A DNA stretch of 64,000 bases from the NCBI RefSeq assembly GCF_056712565.1, contig NZ_CM160072.1; one strand, 5' to 3'. Below are positions 6,624-64,000 of the stretch, piece by piece. The notes beneath the pieces were generated by a model. It was not told the DNA's origin and did no database searches. It saw only the letters and a program-made list of their open reading frames with translations. A program made the translations under genes and the position numbers. Position 1 is the stretch's first letter, and every line of letters starts with the position of its first letter.

Positions 6624-6661
6624 AGAAATTCCCCGATCAAGCGACCGGGGAAGGGGAGAGA

Positions 6662-8625
<1,964 letters not shown>

Positions 8626-8701: not shown

Positions 8702-8907
8702 TTGCCGAATGTAGGCCGGATAAGGCGTTATACGCCGCATCCGGCAATCAATGCCTGATGCGACGCTGTCGCGTCTTATCAGGCCTACAGCCGTTGCCGA
8801 ATGTAGGCCGGATAAGGCGTTCACGCCGCATCCGGCAACCAGCGCCTGATGCGCCGCTGTCGCGTCTTATCAGGCCTACAAACCGTTACCGACTCGCATC
8901 CGGCAAT
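8702..8907. repeat. BIME: tandem duplication of a 92-bp unit of two REP-like palindromes (about 2.2 copies)
   Basis: Unit starting at 8702 repeats at 8794 with a few substitutions, followed by a partial third copy; contains GCCGGATAAGGCGTT..ACGCCGCATCCGGC and GCCTGATGCG..CGTCTTATCAGGCCTAC. Confidence 0.85.
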
Positions 8908-25687: not shown

Positions 25688-27835
25688 TTACGCCAGTGCC
25701 GCTTCGCGCAGGCGAGTTTTCAACTTGTTGTACTCGTCAATCACGTACTGCTCGGCGGCGCGCTGATCGGCGATCGGCTCGACGCGCACGGCGCAGTATT
25801 TGTATTCCGGCGTTTTCGTAATCGGGCTTAAGTTTTCGGTCACCAGCTCGTTACAGGCACCAATCCACCACTGGTAGGTCATGTAAATCGCCCCTTTGTT
25901 CGGACGATCGCTGACCTGCGCACGGGTGATAATTTTGCCTTTACGCGAGTGCACCCAAACCAATGCCTCATCTTCAATACCCAGACGTTTGGCGTCTTCG
26001 GTATTGATTTGTGCGTAGCCAGGTTCATCAGCCAGCGCCGCCAGTGCCGCACAGTTACCGGTCATCGAACGGCAAGAGTAGTGACCAACTTCACGCACCG
26101 TTGACAGTACCATCGGGTACTCGTCGGTGAGTTTGTCGATTGGCGCTACCCAGTCGCAGGTGAAGAACTGCGCCAGACCGTTCGGGGTATCAAACTTCTC
26201 TTTAAACAGATAAGAAGTCCCCTGATCGGCATCTGAAGTATCGCGGCAAGGCCACTGAATGAAGCCCAGTTCGCCCATTTTCTCGTAAGTCGCACCGTAG
26301 AAATCCGGGCACAGATGACGCAACTCGTCCCAGATCTCCTGGGTGTTGTTGTAGTGCATCGGATAACCCATACGAGTGGCAATTTCACTGATGATTTGCC
26401 AGTCCGTTTTCAGATCCCACTTCGGCTCAACCGCCTTGAAGAAACGCTGGAAGCCACGGTCAGCCGCAGTAAACACGCCTTCATGCTCGCCCCACGACGT
26501 TGACGGTAAAATGACATCCGCCGCCGACGCGGTTTTGGTCATAAAGATGTCCTGAACGATAACCAGTTCCAGATCTTCAAAGGCTTTACGTACTGCCGAC
26601 AGTTCCGCGTCAGTTTGCAGCGGATCTTCGCCCATAATGTACGCCGCTCTCACTTCACCATGCGCCACGCGGTGCGGCAGCTCGCTGATACGATAACCGG
26701 TATGAGCAGGCAGGCTTTCCACGCCCCAGGCTTTGGCAAATTTCTCGCGGTTAGCCGGATCTTTCACGTACTGATAGCCCGGATACGTATCCGGCAGCGC
26801 GCCCATATCGCAGGCACCCTGCACGTTGTTCTGACCACGAACCGGGTTTACACCCGCATGTGGCTTACCGAGGTTACCGGTCAGCATCGCGAGGCTGGTC
26901 AGAGAACGCACGGTTTCCACGCCCTGATAGAACTGGGTTACCCCCATGCCCCACAGGATGGCGGCGCTTTCCGCCTGGGCATACATCCGCGCCGCCTGAC
27001 GAATCTCACTGGCGCTGACGCCGGTGATATCTTCAACCGACTCCGGCGTGTAGCCTTCAACGATTTTACGATACTCTTCAAAGCCTTCTGTACGGGAAGC
27101 GACGAACGCTTTGTCGTACAGATTTTCTTCAATAATGACATGGCCCATCGCATTCAACAGCGCGATGTTCGAGCCGTTTTTCAATGCAATGTGCATGTCA
27201 GCAATGCGCGCGGTTTCAATTTTACGCGGATCGCAGACGATAATTTTCGCCCCGTTACGTTTAGCGTTAATTACGTGATTCGCCACGATTGGGTGGGAAT
27301 CCGCCGGGTTATACCCGAAAACGAACACTAAATCGGTATTATCAATTTCGTTAATAGCATTGCTCATTGCGCCATTACCGACCGATTGGTGCAGACCTGC
27401 AACCGATGGGCCGTGTCAGACACGAGCGCAGCAGTCAACGTTATTGGTACCAATAACGGCGCGCGCAAATTTTTGCATTACATAGTTGGTTTCGTTACCC
27501 GTACCGCGCGAGGAGCCGGTCGTCTGGATGGCATCCGGACCGTACTTCTCTTTGATGGCGCTCAGGCGCTCGGCAACGTAATTCAGTGCCTCATCCCAGG
27601 AAACAGGTTCGAGTTTGCCGCCACGCTGGCGACGGATCATGGGGGTTTTCAGGCGCGGGGTCAGGATCTGGGTATCGTTAATGAAGTCCCAGCCATAATA
27701 ACCCTTCAGACACAGGGTACCCTGGTTGGTTTTCCCCTGCGCTGCCTCCGCCCGGACGATTTTGCCGTTATCGACGACCAGGTTGATTTTGCAACCTGAT
27801 GCGCAATAGGGGCAAACCGTGACGACTTTTTTCAT
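25688..27835 (-). CDS. fdhF: Formate dehydrogenase H, selenocysteine-containing molybdoenzyme; in-frame TGA (Sec) at 27417-27419
   Basis: The 139-aa and 559-aa ORFs are contiguous in one frame across a single TGA (..DCCARV-U-HGPSVAGLHQ..); N-terminal CPYCASGC Fe-S motif; total 715 aa. Confidence 0.9.
27370..27416 (-). other. fdhF SECIS stem-loop directing selenocysteine insertion at the TGA
   Basis: mRNA immediately 3' of the UGA (CACGGCCCAUCGGUUGCAGGUCUGCACCAAUCGGUCGG) is the hairpin-forming segment known as the fdhF SECIS. Confidence 0.6.
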
Positions 27836-50792: not shown

Positions 50793-51635
50793 TCAGATAA
50801 AGTGCTTACGCAACCGTTGAGAGAGGAAATCCAGCAGGCTGACCGTGACGATGATGAGCACCATCAGGGCGCAGGTTTGCTGGAACTGGAAACCGCGAAT
50901 CGCTTCCCACAGCGTGACGCCGATCCCGCTCGCGCCAACCATACCGACGACGGTCGCCGAGCGGACGTTGGATTCGAAGCGATAGAGAGAGTAGGAAATC
51001 AGCAGCGGCATGACCTGCGGTAGTACGCCGTAGAGGATCTCTTCCAGCTTGTTGGCACCGGTAGCGCGAATGCCCTCCACCGGGCCGGGTTCAATCGCTT
51101 CTACCGCTTCGGAAAGCAGTTTGGAAAGTACGCCGGTGGTGTGGATAAACAGCGCCAGCACGCCAGCGAACGGGCCGAGGCCGACGGCGACCACGAACAG
51201 CATGGCGAAGACTATTTCGTTAATGGCGCGGCAGGCGTCCATCAGGCGGCGTACAGGTTGGTAGACCCACCACGGTACCAGGTTTTCAGCGCTCATCAGG
51301 CCGAAGGGGATGGAGAGAACCACCGCCAGCGCGGTGCCCCAGACGGCGATTTGCAGCGTGACGGCCATTTCGGTGAGGTAATCCTGCCACTGGCTGAAAT
51401 CGGGCGGGAAGAAGTCGGCGGCGAACGTCGCCATGTTGCCGCCATCTTTAATCAGCGTAAGCGGTGCCATTTCCGCGCCCTGCCACGAGACGACCAGCAC
51501 GGCGATAACAACGGCCCAGCTCAGAAGCGAGAACCAGCTGCGCTTGGGTGGGGCGATGGTGATGGTTTGCATGTTTGGCTCCGGTCTGTAGGCCGGATAA
51601 GGTGCTTGCACCGCATCCGGCATCAACGTCTGCAC
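50793..51635 (-). CDS. phnE: Phosphonate ABC transporter permease; open reading frame uninterrupted
   Basis: Continuous 280-aa ORF (internal alternative start [10 protein letters not shown] possible) with polytopic topology. Confidence 0.85.
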
Positions 51636-51680
51636 ATTGTCGGATGCGACGCCGGGGCGTCTTATCCGACCTACGATTTA
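51585..51680. repeat. REP element pair between phnE and phnD
   Basis: GTAGGCCGGATAAGG..CATCCGGC and CGGATGCGACG..CGTCTTATCCGACCTAC palindromes. Confidence 0.8.
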
Positions 51681-54147: not shown

Positions 54148-54230
<83 letters not shown>

Positions 54231-54578: not shown

Positions 54579-54980
54579 GTGGATTTCCTCAAAAGTCAGC
54601 AGGGCAAAAGCGCCAAAAAACGGCAGATTGCCGAAAAAGGCCGCAATTATACACAAAATCCCTGAGTTTGTCGGGGGTACTGCTGATTTTAGACGACGAT
54701 CGTTTTCATTTGAAAGGAAACGCAAAAAGAAAATAATCTTTTTGCCTCCATTTATTATTTAAGATAAGGTTAATGCTCTACATGTTCTTTTTTTAATTCA
54801 AATGATATTTTTTATCTTTCTGACGTTTTAAACGTATCGGAAGACGTTATTTATTCTAATAAAAAACAACACTCTAAATATAAAATTATTTCTTGCAGTA
54901 ATTATAAAAGCCGAAAACAGAACTCAAAAACAATCTGGCTAAATAAAAGTAATAAAATTTGCTTTAAGGAAAAATTTTCT

Positions 54981-59850: not shown

Positions 59851-59900
59851 GCTGAAACGGATGGCCTGATGTGACGCTGTCTAATCAGGTCAATTGAACT

Positions 59901-59917
59901 CTTAAGGTTCACTTAAT
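59901..59917 (+). promoter_or_regulatory. PmrA (BasR) box CTTAAG-GTTCA-CTTAAT upstream of pmrR
   Basis: Direct hexamer repeat with 5-bp spacer matching the YTTAAK-N5-YTTAAK PmrA consensus, 45 bp upstream of the pmrR ATG. Confidence 0.6.
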
Positions 59918-59961
59918 CTCTGACGCGCATACTCTCCTCCAGGTTAACGGAGGAGAGTGCA

Positions 59962-60051
59962 ATGAAAAACCGTGTTTATGAAAGTTTAACTACCGTGTTC
60001 AGCGTGCTGGTGGTCAGCAGCTTTCTTTATATCTGGTTTGCCACGTACTGA
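59962..60051 (+). CDS. pmrR: PmrR, 29-aa membrane peptide (PmrA-activated regulator of LpxT)
   Basis: ORF MKNRVYESLTTVFSVLVVSSFLYIWFATY with one transmembrane helix, preceded by GGAGGAGAG; its 3' end overlaps the basS 3' end on the opposite strand. Confidence 0.6.
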   Translation: MKNRVYESLTTVFSVLVVSSFLYIWFATY

Positions 60052-61127
60052 TCTTTTTTCAGCCGTATCCAGGCCCGCGTGCCGGAAGTCTCTTGCCGGT
60101 TTTGCAGGAAAAACTGCCCGTGATGCAACTGTGTAATGCGGCTGACAATACTTAACCCCAGACCAATCCCGCCATAACGGCTGTCCATTCGTACAAACGC
60201 TTTACTCAACTCCCCGCATTTACTCTCATCAATACCCGGCCCTTCATCTTCAACGGCCATGACCGCTCCGCCATCTTCTTGCAGCTTAATCATAATGTTG
60301 CTGCCTTGTGGGCTATAACGATGGGCGTTTTCTACCAGGTTTCGCAATAACATCCGCAGCAGGGTTGCATCACCCTGAACGGTGATGTCGGCGGCGCTCT
60401 CTGGCAATAGCAGGGTTTGCTGGCGCTGGTCGAGCATGGTACTAAGTTCGTCATACGAGGGGAGAATGACATCTTCCAGCAGTTTTACATGTTGATAATT
60501 ACCGGAAGAAAATGACTGTCCGGCACGCGCCAGTTGCAGCAGCTGGGAGACGCTCTCCATCATCTGATCAAGTCGTGCCACTAACGGTGCTACATCAATG
60601 TGATGCGTTTTCGCCAGCAGTTCCAGATGCAAACGCACCCCCGCCAGTGGTGTTCGCAGTTCGTGCGCGACGTCAGCGGTAAACAACCTTTCGTTATCCA
60701 GCGTGCTGGTCAGGCGACTGACCAGATCGTTTAACGCCGAAACCACCGCATCGATTTCGAGGGTGGCGCTATGAATGGCAATGGGCGTTAAGTTATCGGC
60801 GGTGCGCGCTTCCAGCTCTTTTTGCAGCTCCGCCAGCGGTCGGGTGATGCGGCGTACCGCCTGATAGCAGATAAATAGCGTCAGGCTAACCATAAAGACG
60901 CCGGGGACAATCAGGCTGGCGACCGCCTCGCGGATCTCACGCATGATGTGGCGATCGTTGTTGCGATTGTCGCGTAGCGCCTGCTCAAACAGCTGAATCT
61001 GCTCGGTACTTTCATGCCACAGCCAGAAGACGCTGATCAGCTCAAACACCAACAAAATGGCCCCGATGGTCAATATCAGCCGTTGGCGCAGCGATATTGG
61101 TCGGCGCAGAAAACGCATCAGATTCAA
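60027..61127 (-). CDS. basS: Sensor histidine kinase BasS/PmrB
   Basis: HAMP and HisKA (HELRTPL) motifs; start could be 61127 or the ATG at 61118. Confidence 0.9.
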   Translation of the reverse strand: MNLMRFLRRPISLRQRLILTIGAILLVFELISVFWLWHESTEQIQLFEQALRDNRNNDRHIMREIREAVASLIVPGVFMVSLTLFICYQAVRRITRPLAELQKELEARTADNLTPIAIHSATLEIDAVVSALNDLVSRLTSTLDNERLFTADVAHELRTPLAGVRLHLELLAKTHHIDVAPLVARLDQMMESVSQLLQLARAGQSFSSGNYQHVKLLEDVILPSYDELSTMLDQRQQTLLLPESAADITVQGDATLLRMLLRNLVENAHRYSPQGSNIMIKLQEDGGAVMAVEDEGPGIDESKCGELSKAFVRMDSRYGGIGLGLSIVSRITQLHHGQFFLQNRQETSGTRAWIRLKKDQYVANQI

Positions 61128-61796
61128 TTAGTTTTCCTCATTTGCGACCAGCATATAGCCAAATCCGCGCACGGTGCGGATACGGGCTTTGCCCACTTTG
61201 TCGCGCAGGTTATGGATATGCACTTCCAGGGTGTTGGTCGAGGGCTCGTTGTCCCAGTTGTAGATATCGTTGTAGAGAATTTCCCGATGCACCGGGCTGC
61301 CTGCTTTAAGCATCAGGCGCGACAGCAGAGCATATTCTTTGGGCGTCAGAATCAGTTCTTCTCCGCTCATCCATACCTGGCGGCGACCCATATTCAGCGT
61401 CAGGTTGCCAACGTTCAGCTCACTTTCGCCCTGATTATTATGGCGTCGTAGCAGGGCGCGGATACGGGCGTGCAACTCTTCCAGCGCAAAAGGCTTCACC
61501 AGATAATCGTCGGCCCCGACATCCAGCCCGGCGATTTTGTCGGTAAGGGTATCGCGGGCGGTGAGAATTAACACCGGCAGAGTGTATTTTTTCTGCCGGA
61601 TACGGGCAAGAAAATGCAGCCCATCTTCATCGGGTAAGCCTAAATCCAGTACCACCAGGCTGTAATGACCGGCTTCAAGGCTTTGTTCCGCCATCCGCGC
61701 GGTGCTCACGCCATCGCACGCGTAGCCTTCGGTTTGCGCCGCCAGAATCAATCCCTGCAATAACAGCGTATCGTCTTCAACAATCAGAATTTTCAT
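61128..61796 (-). CDS. basR: OmpR-family response regulator BasR/PmrA
   Basis: 222-aa ORF, receiver domain plus winged-helix. Confidence 0.95.
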
Positions 61797-63436
61797 TCAC
61801 TCACTCTCCTGCAAGTTTGCAGAATATCATCCGCAGCCTGGTAATACTTCGTCTCAACGCCAGTCAGGCCCAATAAGGTTGAGAATAAGTTGTCTTGTGA
61901 ATAGTGTTGCGTTTGCGCCTGTTTTTGCAGGCAGTTCTGGTCAACCTGATACCGTTTTTGATAATCCTCCGATAGCCACAGCAGCATCGGCACCTGTTTT
62001 TGGCTATCCGGGGCGATGGCATAAGGCAGACCGTGCAGATAGATGCCATTTTCACCTAACGATTCACCGTGGTCAGAAAGATAAACCAGGCTGGTGGTAA
62101 ATTTATCCTGATGTTCTTTCAGCAGATTAATCGCTTTATCAACAATATAGTCGACGTAAACCAGCGTGTTGTCGTAAGTGTTCACCAGTTGCTCTTGGGT
62201 ACAGGTCTGGATCTCGTTAGTGTCGCAGGTTGGGGTAAATTTCCTGAACTGCGGCGGATAGCGGTTGTAATAGGTCGGGCCGTGGCTGCCGATAGTGTGT
62301 AATACAATGAGGCCATCGCTTTGCAGATTATTGATGTACTCTTCCAGCCCGTGGAACAGCACTTCGTCATAGCATTCGCCGTTGATGCACTGACCAGGCA
62401 GGTTCAGCGCGGTGACGTTCTGGTGAGGTACGCGATCGCAAACGCCTTTACAGCCGCCATCGTTGTCATTCCACAGCACGTTGATGCCCGCTCGCTGAAT
62501 GATATCCAGCACGCCTTCCTGGTGCTGTGCCAGCTCTTCTTTGTAGTGCTCACGCGGCATATCCGAGAACATGCACGGCACTGAGACGGCTGTTGCTGTG
62601 CCACAAGAGGCGGTATTAGGGAAATAGACCACGTTATCTTTTGCCAGGCGAGGATTGGTTTCGCGTGGATAACCATTCAGCGAGAAATTCTCTGCGCGCG
62701 ACGTTTCTCCGACGATCAAAATGGTCAGGTTTTTGCGTTTCCCATTTTGCATTAATGGGTTGCGGTGAGCATCTTCACCAATGCGTATCAGTGGCAGGTT
62801 GGCTGACCGCTGGTGAGAGTACCACGACCAGCTAGCAACAATGCTGTTGGACGGGCTTAAGGATTTCACCAGTTCTTTGTTGTTGCGAAACAGCGATGCA
62901 TAGTCTTTGTAGAACAGTGCGGCAACCAGCAGAATCAGCAGTACAGAAATCAGGATGTTGGCCCCGCGGAAAAGAACGCTGCGCAGGCGTGAGGTGGTGG
63001 GTTTGATTTTGATCCAGCAGGCAATCAGCGCAGCAAGCACGCCGCTGAATCCCAGCGTTAATAACATTTGCGGCGTCATCAACGCATAACTTTCTGCCGG
63101 AGTGGTATCAATAATATTGGCAATCATCGAGCGGTCGATGACGATGCCGTAAGTCATTATGAAATATTGTGCAGCCGCGCCAACCAGAATAAACAGGCAG
63201 GCCAGCGGTCGATTAAGCCACAAGAAAGAGCTTAGTGTCAGGACAATATTAATCACGCTGAAGGCGACGACCGGCATCGACAAGAAAACCAGTACGTTAT
63301 GCAGCGAGTCCAGCGGCAGCGCCTGCAACACCTGTTTAAAAAAGGCAATATTCAGGCAGATAGAGATATAAAAAGCGGCTAACAATAGCCAGGCGAGTAA
63401 ATTCAAAGAGGGTCTTTTTAGTAGGCGCTTCAACAT
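61793..63436 (-). CDS. eptA: Lipid A phosphoethanolamine transferase
   Basis: 547 aa from [14 protein letters not shown]; membrane N-terminal domain plus sulfatase-like periplasmic domain; overlaps basR start. Confidence 0.9.
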
Positions 63437-63482
63437 CACGGTGTTTCCATCGAACAAAGTGCGCATATGCTCGCAAAGCAAA

Positions 63483-63499
63483 ATTAAGCCAACCTTAAG
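63483..63499 (-). promoter_or_regulatory. PmrA (BasR) box CTTAAG-GTTGG-CTTAAT upstream of eptA
   Basis: Minus-strand direct hexamer repeat with 5-bp spacer, 47-63 bp upstream of the eptA ATG at 63436. Confidence 0.6.
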
Positions 63500-63539
63500 T
63501 TCTTAAGGTTGGCTTTTATGTTTGCTTGATTAAGGGGAA

Positions 63540-64000
63540 TTAATCTTTGCTTATTGGTGCATCTAAGGGATACGGGTTTTTATGCAGCCGGTTGTAATTC
63601 AGCGCATACATGGCGGTGATTACCATCAGAGTGACAAATGACCACATAACCTCTTTCGCGCCGGACCCTACTACGGCCCAGATGCAGTAGAGGAAGGCAA
63701 TGGTAGTCACTGCCAGATATGCCGGGCGTGCTTTACCAAAGTGACCGTGGCCGAGCAGTAGTAACGCCGCACAGGTGTAAAGATATGGCACCAGTGTAAA
63801 GATGACCGACACGGAAGAAACCAGACCGAATTCTTTGGTCGCGTTTGGCGAAATGCTACTGAGCTGGAAGATGGTCATCAAAATACCGACGATAATCAGC
63901 CCCGCCACTGGCGTGCCCGCTTTATTTACACGGGCAAAAATCGGTGGGAACAGTCCGTCATCGGCAGCGGCTTTCGCCGTTTGACCCGCCAGCAACGTCC
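63540..64000 (-). CDS. adiC: Arginine:agmatine antiporter, C-terminal part only; the gene continues beyond the window end
   Basis: ORF ending ..[22 protein letters not shown]-family membrane protein; synteny with eptA. Confidence 0.85.

Follow-up and report, generated by a model that had tools for sequence, protein, structure and literature searches.

The eptA promoter of Escherichia coli: a PmrA (BasR) operator in a perfect palindrome that may double as the 3' hairpin of adiC

The DNA sites of the response regulator PmrA (BasR) have been described down to their half-sites. In one account, half-site 1 reads 'CTTAAG' and half-site 2 'XTTAAT', with five base pairs between them (PMC3973317), and another defines the box as (C/T)TTAA(G/T)-N5-(C/T)TTAA(G/T) (PMC10729948). 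The DNA-binding domains of PmrA were placed at the -35 position, with the pbgP box at approximately -37 to -21, in a study whose promoter carries an upstream AT-rich segment (PMC10570014). The Salmonella counterpart of eptA, yjdB/pmrC, is among the known and confirmed members of the PmrAB regulon, and four motif instances, its own among them, were recovered together with the E. coli and Y. pestis orthologues (PMC1525208).

The window analyzed here, a stretch of 64,000 nucleotides, is E. coli DNA. A query of 241 bases around the palindrome discussed below matches 5412 of 5426 complete E. coli genomes; strain ATCC 11775 matches it at 100%, and the RefSeq annotation beneath this match names adiC and eptA. 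The palindrome of K-12 MG1655 is identical to that of the window, and window positions are converted into positions of NC_000913.3 by adding 4,272,154. On the minus strand, adiC is followed by a spacer of 103 nt and then by eptA, basR, and basS. The stop codon of adiC (TAA) lies at 63542-63540, and the gene runs past the end of the window. RefSeq and the K-12 coordinates thereby confirm the two gene identities assigned in an initial annotation of this DNA, and the features of the locus are collected in Table 1. For comparison, an EptA scan with one genome per species yielded 60 loci, and 58 eptA loci were aligned. The gene immediately upstream of eptA is adiC in Escherichia, Salmonella, and most Citrobacter (26 loci and the window). 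It is a different yet co-directional gene in Klebsiella, Kluyvera, Raoultella, Enterobacter-like isolates, C. koseri, Intestinirhabdus, Pantoea, and Tatumella, for example one for a 301-aa protein in Klebsiella and one for a 210-aa membrane protein in Intestinirhabdus.

Table 1. Features of the adiC-eptA-basRS region in window coordinates.
Feature	Position	Strand	Basis
adiC, 3' part, arginine:agmatine antiporter	63540..64000	-	ORF translation, RefSeq annotation, K-12 b4115
Spacer between adiC stop and palindrome, 24 nt, poorly conserved	63516..63539	-	alignment, E. coli genome matches
Perfect 30-base palindrome, arms of 14 and 14 nt, 2-nt centre	63486..63515	both	inverted-repeat search, folding
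Outer part of the upstream arm, AAGCCAAC	63508..63515	-	mirrors box spacer and first bases of half-site 2
Third hexamer CTTAAG, 8 bp upstream (start to start) of half-site 1	63502..63507	-	promoter alignment
PmrA/BasR box CTTAAG-GTTGG-CTTAAT, putative position -39 to -23	63499-63483	-	motif match, published box definitions
T-rich tail after the hairpin in adiC sense, AAUUUUGCUU	63476..63485	-	terminator scan, scoring
Extended -10: TG (63475-63474), one base, GAGCAT (63472-63467)	63467..63475	-	inferred from columns of 48 distinct promoters
Predicted eptA transcription start, A about 7 nt after the -10	63460 (NC_000913.3 4335614)	-	column conservation
eptA (pmrC/yjdB), phosphoethanolamine transferase, ATG at 63436	61793..63436	-	ORF, RefSeq, K-12
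basR (pmrA), response regulator for the box; 4-nt overlap with eptA stop	61128..61796	-	ORF, K-12
basS (pmrB), sensor kinase, last gene of the eptA-basRS unit	60027..61118	-	K-12 coordinates mapped onto the window

Taken as a whole, we read this DNA as the BasR operator of the eptA-basRS promoter, set in a palindrome that would double as the 3' hairpin of adiC, with no sign of a device coupling the two genes, and we give this reading a probability of roughly 55%. Its parts differ in strength and are treated in turn.

The firmest part is the operator itself. Against an expectation of 0.08, the window contains two matches to the strict pattern YTTAAK-N5-YTTAAK, and both stand upstream of PmrA-regulated genes, namely eptA and pmrR (59901-59917). 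The minus-strand box proposed upstream of eptA in the initial annotation was recovered without a mismatch; it consists of half-site 1 CTTAAG (63499-63494), the spacer GTTGG (63493-63489), and half-site 2 CTTAAT (63488-63483), and is oriented toward eptA on the same strand, 47-63 nt upstream of its ATG. In 46 distinct Enterobacteriaceae sequences, neither the TTAA of the two half-sites nor the GTT that follows half-site 1 varies. By all of its sequence-level features the site belongs to the PmrA box class, and since it fits the published definition exactly and pmrC is part of the PmrAB regulon, the PmrA box of eptA is to be regarded as already known. A further PmrA-box-like sequence with one mismatch, TTTAAGATAAGGTTAAT, at 54758-54774 on the plus strand is probably meaningless, as chance alone would give approximately 2.5 of this kind.

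Anchored on the box, the eptA promoters of the 58 loci align without gaps, and the conserved columns outline the rest of the promoter. Ten nucleotides after half-site 2 follows a -10 hexamer of the form NANNAT, whose A2, A5, and T6 are present in 100% of 48 distinct Enterobacteriaceae promoters; a TG stands two bases upstream of it, with its G conserved at 98%, and the CTTAA of half-site 2 is likewise among the invariant columns (46-48 distinct Enterobacteriaceae sequences). The pmrR promoter, which also lies in the window, repeats this arrangement, with CATACT 10 nt after its half-site 2. An alternative model with CATATG as the -10, 13 nt after half-site 2, and TTGGCT as a -35-like element was dropped because the conserved columns do not fit it: A2, A5, T6, and the TG point to the other hexamer, whose position also suits pmrR and pbgP better. 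The eptA promoter would therefore be of the extended -10 type (TGcGAGCAT), with transcription starting near 63460 and the box spanning about -39 to -23. Phosphorylated BasR would bind head-to-tail to CTTAAG-N5-CTTAAT (63499-63483), a direct repeat lying over the -35 position of a promoter that appears to have only an extended -10 (TGnGAGCAT), and would recruit RNA polymerase there in the manner of PhoB and PmrA. That BasR-P binds the direct repeat and activates the eptA-basRS promoter in this way is very probable, with binding and start taken from motif and column conservation. As the predicted start lies downstream of the palindrome, the eptA mRNA itself would not contain the hairpin.

The alignment also brings out an element outside the usual two-half-site definition. 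Eight base pairs upstream of half-site 1, start to start, a third hexamer is found, the TTAA core of which is invariant in 46 distinct Enterobacteriaceae eptA promoters, no matter whether adiC is the upstream gene. It is kept behind adiC, behind the gene for the 301-aa protein of Klebsiella, and behind that for the 210-aa membrane protein of Intestinirhabdus. Since the hexamer is invariant regardless of the upstream gene, it is the eptA promoter, rather than adiC, to which the palindrome's core belongs, and the notion that adiC accounts for the palindrome's existence found no support. In Salmonella and many Citrobacter the third hexamer, ATTAAG, is best read as a half-site in reverse orientation (CTTAAT on the opposite strand), and with the flanking AAC, which mirrors the GTT, it resembles the extended half-site 1 inverted. 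The third hexamer would thus be a part of the eptA promoter, and it probably is a constrained element that functions at the DNA level, most likely as an additional inverted PmrA contact or as an upstream AT-rich element, judging from its conservation. It is a small detail, and possibly one that has so far gone unreported.

The same data could be taken further, namely that the whole palindrome is a DNA-level promoter element and its upstream arm a third, inverted PmrA half-site or an alpha-CTD/UP-like contact, in which case the RNA hairpin would have no role and adiC transcripts would end by Rho or enter eptA. The third hexamer being as invariant as both half-sites, with any upstream gene, would agree with this, as would the mirrored AAC-CTTAAG, which corresponds to the extended half-site 1 CTTAAG-GTT, and the complete inverted box of some Citrobacter. 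However, a half-site does not explain why the outer GCC/GGC pairs are conserved in Escherichia, C. amalonaticus, and Intestinirhabdus, nor why the outer stem decays where another hairpin follows adiC. The spacing of 8 bp is also unlike the 11-bp register of tandem OmpR/PhoB-type sites and of the box repeat itself, and the inverted second half-site of E. coli, CTTTTA, does not contain the TAA that PmrA reads (PMC10570014). We consider this DNA-only explanation to be the foremost of the alternatives and still a rather unlikely one. For the same lack of TAA in CTTTTA, a divergent PmrA-dependent antisense promoter is unlikely; a conserved -10 on the plus strand was found neither in E. coli nor in the Citrobacter species with a full inverted box. 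By eye, the centre of the palindrome does not fit the RcsB-box consensus either, nor that of QseB (as given in PMC10729948).

The palindrome extends well beyond the third hexamer. On the plus strand, 63483-63515 reads ATTAAG-CCAAC-CTTAAG-TT-CTTAAGGTTGGCTT, and an inverted-repeat search returns arms at 63486-63499 and 63502-63515 that are 100% complementary and 2 nt apart. It begins 24 nt after the adiC stop, in good agreement with the 25 bp given initially, and the extended palindrome said to enclose the box does contain 14 of its 17 bases, the final AAT (63485-63483) lying outside. It is the longest perfect inverted repeat within the 64-kb window, and in 30 first-order Markov simulations of 64 kb the arm never exceeded 12 nt, so that chance does not account for the repeat. 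As RNA, either strand would form a stem of 13 bp with a 4-nt loop and five G-C pairs, the upper half being AU-rich; folding of 45 nt gave -18.8 kcal/mol for the minus strand (z = -6.0) and -18.3 kcal/mol for the plus strand (z = -5.4).

Within E. coli, this stretch hardly varies. Of 5411 genomes, 5382 have the same palindrome with 5 nt on each side; the core promoter is unchanged in 5389 of 5410, and the adiC-proximal 40 nt (63516-63555) are identical in just 857 of 5400. Among seven Escherichia sequences, variable columns number 1 of 14 in the upstream arm, 0 of 14 in the box arm, and 12 of 24 in the spacer on the adiC side. Across the comparison set, the perfect palindrome measures 13-15 bp in Escherichia, 13-16 bp in two genomes of the C. 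amalonaticus complex, 12 bp in C. sedlakii and Intestinirhabdus, 11 bp in one isolate labelled Chryseobacterium, and 5-9 bp elsewhere. The outer upstream arm is kept in Escherichia, some Citrobacter, and Intestinirhabdus and lost in Salmonella, Klebsiella, and Kluyvera, and three Citrobacter loci carry a complete inverted box, e.g., ATTAAGCCAACATTAAG-TT-CTTAAGGTTGGCTTAAT. Covariation in the stem is weak: 79% of the alignment cells pair versus 77% in shuffles, double changes occur in two pairs only, and roughly half of the sequences do not pair at the three outermost positions of the stem.

A palindrome of this kind could also be a mutational by-product. Lavi et al. (2018) found perfect inverted repeats of E. 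coli K-12 to be conserved beyond expectation and proposed a preferential template-switch correction of imperfect repeats as the cause (PMC5941160), and PMC7202029 describes quasipalindromes as hotspots of template switching in E. coli. Replication template switching would then have repeatedly perfected and lengthened a short inverted repeat around half-site 1, a quasipalindrome, and the outer arms would be functionless. Traces of arm copying are visible in both directions: the GACAAC of isolate 18061 mirrors its own GTTGTC spacer, and in the Citrobacter Cu233 group half-site 1 is changed to CTTAAT, matching ATTAAG. Pantoea and Tatumella, moreover, have palindromes around half-site 1 at other spacings. 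However, such a process predicts neither the inverse relation with a second hairpin at adiC-eptA loci (see below) nor the near-invariance in 5382 of 5411 E. coli genomes, even if conversion from a constrained arm could mimic the latter. As a full explanation we find it unlikely, slightly more so than the DNA-only one, but the copying in both directions implies that the perfection of the palindrome may be partly mutational and not selected. In Escherichia, the sequence upstream is a mirror image of half-site 1, of the spacer, and of the beginning of half-site 2, and this yields the perfect 14-bp palindrome.

Against our main reading, the Erwiniaceae have the sequence that pairs with half-site 1 at different distances. 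In Pantoea RIT-PI-b and Tatumella saanichensis (loci L042 and L046, approximately 2935-2960), half-site 1 lies in a short palindrome, GCCTTAATTAAGGT without a gap and AAAACCTTA-CT-TAAGGTTTT, respectively. These cases suggest a recurrent tendency toward palindromes around TTAAGGTT.

Whether the palindrome also ends adiC transcripts, as initially proposed, is a matter on which the evidence is divided. In Escherichia it is the only hairpin in the 103-nt spacer between adiC and eptA, and a consensus scan calls it terminator-like on both strands, with an A-rich 5' flank and a T-rich 3' flank. If the hairpin terminates, the 3' ends of adiC are expected in the T-rich tail at 63476-63485, which consists of the 3' end of half-site 2 and promoter spacer. 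On the other hand, the U-tract in adiC sense is interrupted (UUAAUUUU; the tail reads UUAAUUUUGCUUUG), and its T-score is 2.78 compared with 3.97-5.51 in five reference terminators. With a score of the d'Aubenton-Carafa type (threshold 0), calibrated on trpA t, rrnB T1, lambda tR2, the his attenuator, and T7 Te, the hairpin obtained -9.5 in adiC sense and +13.8 on the plus strand, and the five textbook terminators ranged from +22 to +70. The sub-threshold value in adiC sense, and the lack of the hairpin in Salmonella, would also be in line with the DNA-only explanation above.

The better score of the plus strand raises the possibility that the hairpin mainly stops antisense transcription that starts inside eptA and would enter adiC, or that it is a bidirectional terminator. 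There, the stem is followed by UUUUAUGUUUGC, the value of +13.8 resembles that of the sraL terminator (+12.8/+12.9), and the scan is positive for both strands. However, no plus-strand gene or known transcript lies upstream, eptA and basRS are all encoded on the minus strand, and the plus-strand T-tract (the A-rich segment of the minus strand) varies even within Escherichia, so that we regard an antisense terminator as quite improbable. The sraL sRNA itself is found at 804-944 on the minus strand (Rfam, 153 bits) and includes a perfect 13-bp hairpin at 805-835; scoring +12.8 and +12.9 on the two strands, that hairpin is likely a bidirectional terminator.

One argument for a role in adiC comes from the relatives. 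The hairpin, strong in Escherichia and C. amalonaticus, is missing from Salmonella and a large part of the C. freundii complex; Salmonella keeps the order adiC-eptA and has no stable hairpin at the box (z = -0.06). Instead, Salmonella and many Citrobacter have another, G+C-rich hairpin (2897-2918 in L007 and L008; approximately 2872-2897 in L010, L012, L014, L015, L053, and L054) after the adiC stop and ahead of the eptA box, and their intergenic spacer is 30-45 nt longer. The Salmonella-type hairpin, CCGGAT...ATCCGG, recurs at other intergenic sites in the manner of a REP element, including downstream of basS in several loci, and L054 has three in tandem at 6643-6879, which resembles REP/BIME arrays. 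Over the 27 adiC-eptA loci, the stability of the palindrome falls as that of the other hairpin rises (Spearman rho -0.81); the means of eight hand-defined clades, which are few and not independent, gave a rho of -0.88 with a permutation p of 0.004. Such a trade-off would be expected if adiC requires a 3' hairpin of some kind, provided in E. coli by the palindrome. Against this, the 31 loci that do not have adiC show no such relation (rho 0.05). Intestinirhabdus has both its 12-bp palindrome and a separate hairpin of -27 kcal/mol, and Kluyvera has neither.

In several Kluyvera and in isolate MGYG-HGUT-00110 (L027, L033, L036, and L040, approximately 2930-2945), the stop codon of the upstream gene of about 300 aa abuts the block immediately upstream of the third hexamer. 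No hairpin of any strength separates that gene from the eptA promoter, and transcripts seem likely to run on into eptA in these genomes.

A literature search on 3'-end and operon maps of E. coli did not yield published 3'-end data for adiC, the portion of the supplementary tables of Adams et al. (2021) available to us holds no entry for adiC or eptA, and a literature search for an E. coli or Salmonella footprint or transcription start of the eptA/pmrC promoter likewise returned none. With regard to the locus itself, adiC would be transcribed into the palindrome, so that its RNA would form its sole 3' hairpin there (-15 to -19 kcal/mol), followed by UUAAUUUUGCUUUG. This hairpin may be either a leaky intrinsic terminator or a structure protecting the 3' end of adiC, and operator and hairpin would share the same DNA because the spacer is just 103 nt long. 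Of the terminator initially proposed, the sole spacer hairpin, the call of the scan, and the trade-off speak for it, and the interrupted U-tract, the score of -9.5, and the lack of this hairpin in Salmonella speak against it. A weak terminator or 3' stabilizer of adiC is plausible, and we tentatively put the chance that the RNA hairpin is a leaky terminator or a protective 3' end in E. coli at slightly below even.

It was further suggested that sharing the DNA would couple adiC read-through to the occupancy of the eptA promoter. In such a model, read-through would clear or block PmrA, or bound PmrA would act as a roadblock that aids termination, and acid would modulate eptA. Acid pH is a signal to which both adiC and PmrB respond, and the geometry, a hairpin and U-tract overlapping the box, would by itself permit such an arrangement. 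However, box and third hexamer are conserved behind unrelated upstream genes, and Salmonella has kept the gene order without the hairpin. The main text of PMC10746267 reports induction of adiA and adiC at pH 4.4 and does not mention eptA, basR, or arnB. The coupling proposal thus found no support, and we consider it the least probable of the explanations discussed here. A bolder version, in which eptA of the Enterobacteriaceae has a three-hexamer operator whose inverted third half-site binds an extra PmrA protomer or a second dimer and in which PmrA occupancy and adiC termination influence each other in Escherichia, e.g., as a roadblock-assisted terminator, is improbable as well. If it were true, it would tie arginine-dependent acid resistance to lipid A modification.

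Several other elements were considered at or near this site. A REP/BIME element was rejected for the palindrome, as the Rfam naRNA4 matches lie elsewhere in the window; a 40-nt palindrome query hits a median of two places per genome, consistent with an other-strand match at one locus. The four naRNA4 (REP-derived) elements include those at 8714-8876 (+), 51591-51671 (+), and 54148-54225 (-), and among the matches at gathering level is also a SECIS_2 selenocysteine insertion element at 27369-27423 (-). The Rfam family STnc630 was likewise rejected at the palindrome, with 24.3 bits against a gathering threshold of 55; the aligned part is the PmrA box, and the match is an artefact of a family model that includes the PmrA box of pmrR. 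The true STnc630 is the pmrR locus at 59893-60058 (+), with 182 bits. Here, the box at 59901-59917 is followed by a 10-bp G+C-rich hairpin (59931-59958) just past the stop of the convergent basS and by pmrR itself (ATG 59962). Since the model spans the box, the hairpin, and the start of the pmrR frame, this 'sRNA' family appears to be the pmrR promoter and mRNA.

Among the public assemblies, a contig labelled Chryseobacterium sp. 18061 (L028) carries an eptA locus of the Enterobacteriaceae type with 71% identity, and two contigs of 230-250 bases in Comamonadaceae and Methylobacterium assemblies (L060 and L061) are 98-100% identical to E. coli eptA. All three probably reflect mislabelling or contamination.

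What the comparison provides is a base-resolution map of the eptA promoter that is backed by conservation and comprises the box, the extended -10, and an invariant third hexamer, together with the one sequence that might terminate adiC mRNA in E. coli. Should the third hexamer turn out to be a genuine contact of PmrA, the binding model of PmrA would be slightly refined, and if the hairpin terminates adiC, this would simply be signal sharing in a compact genome. Neither would be much of a surprise to a specialist. A 3' hairpin that overlaps the next promoter is ordinary, being two signals in a short intergenic spacer.

Compared with the known PmrA boxes of pmrC (yjdB), pbgP/arnB, and ugd in Salmonella and Klebsiella, the eptA site has the same hexamers, 5 bp apart, head-to-tail, and over the -35; those promoters likewise have a weak -35 or none, and pmrC, which is eptA, is the same regulated gene. 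In contrast to them, eptA of the Enterobacteriaceae adds the invariant TTAA hexamer 8 bp upstream, which Escherichia extends to a palindrome; the E. coli arnB and pmrR promoters have just an AT-rich sequence with one mismatch at this position. With intrinsic terminators, including bidirectional ones, the locus shares a stable stem-loop 24 nt after the stop and A-rich and T-rich flanks, but it differs from them in its AU-rich upper stem, its interrupted U-tract, and the better score on the strand that has no gene to terminate. At the pmrR promoter with the basS 3' hairpin, too, a promoter that depends on PmrA occupies the same DNA as the 3' hairpin of a neighbour. However, the pmrR hairpin lies downstream of its box in the leader, is G+C-rich, and is unrelated to the box, whereas at eptA the hairpin is made from the box itself. 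Finally, as in the repeats described by Lavi et al. (PMC5941160), we find a short perfect repeat that is conserved in relatives and shows arm-to-arm copying between species, although here the conservation need not stem from the repeat itself, since one arm is independently constrained as a transcription factor site.
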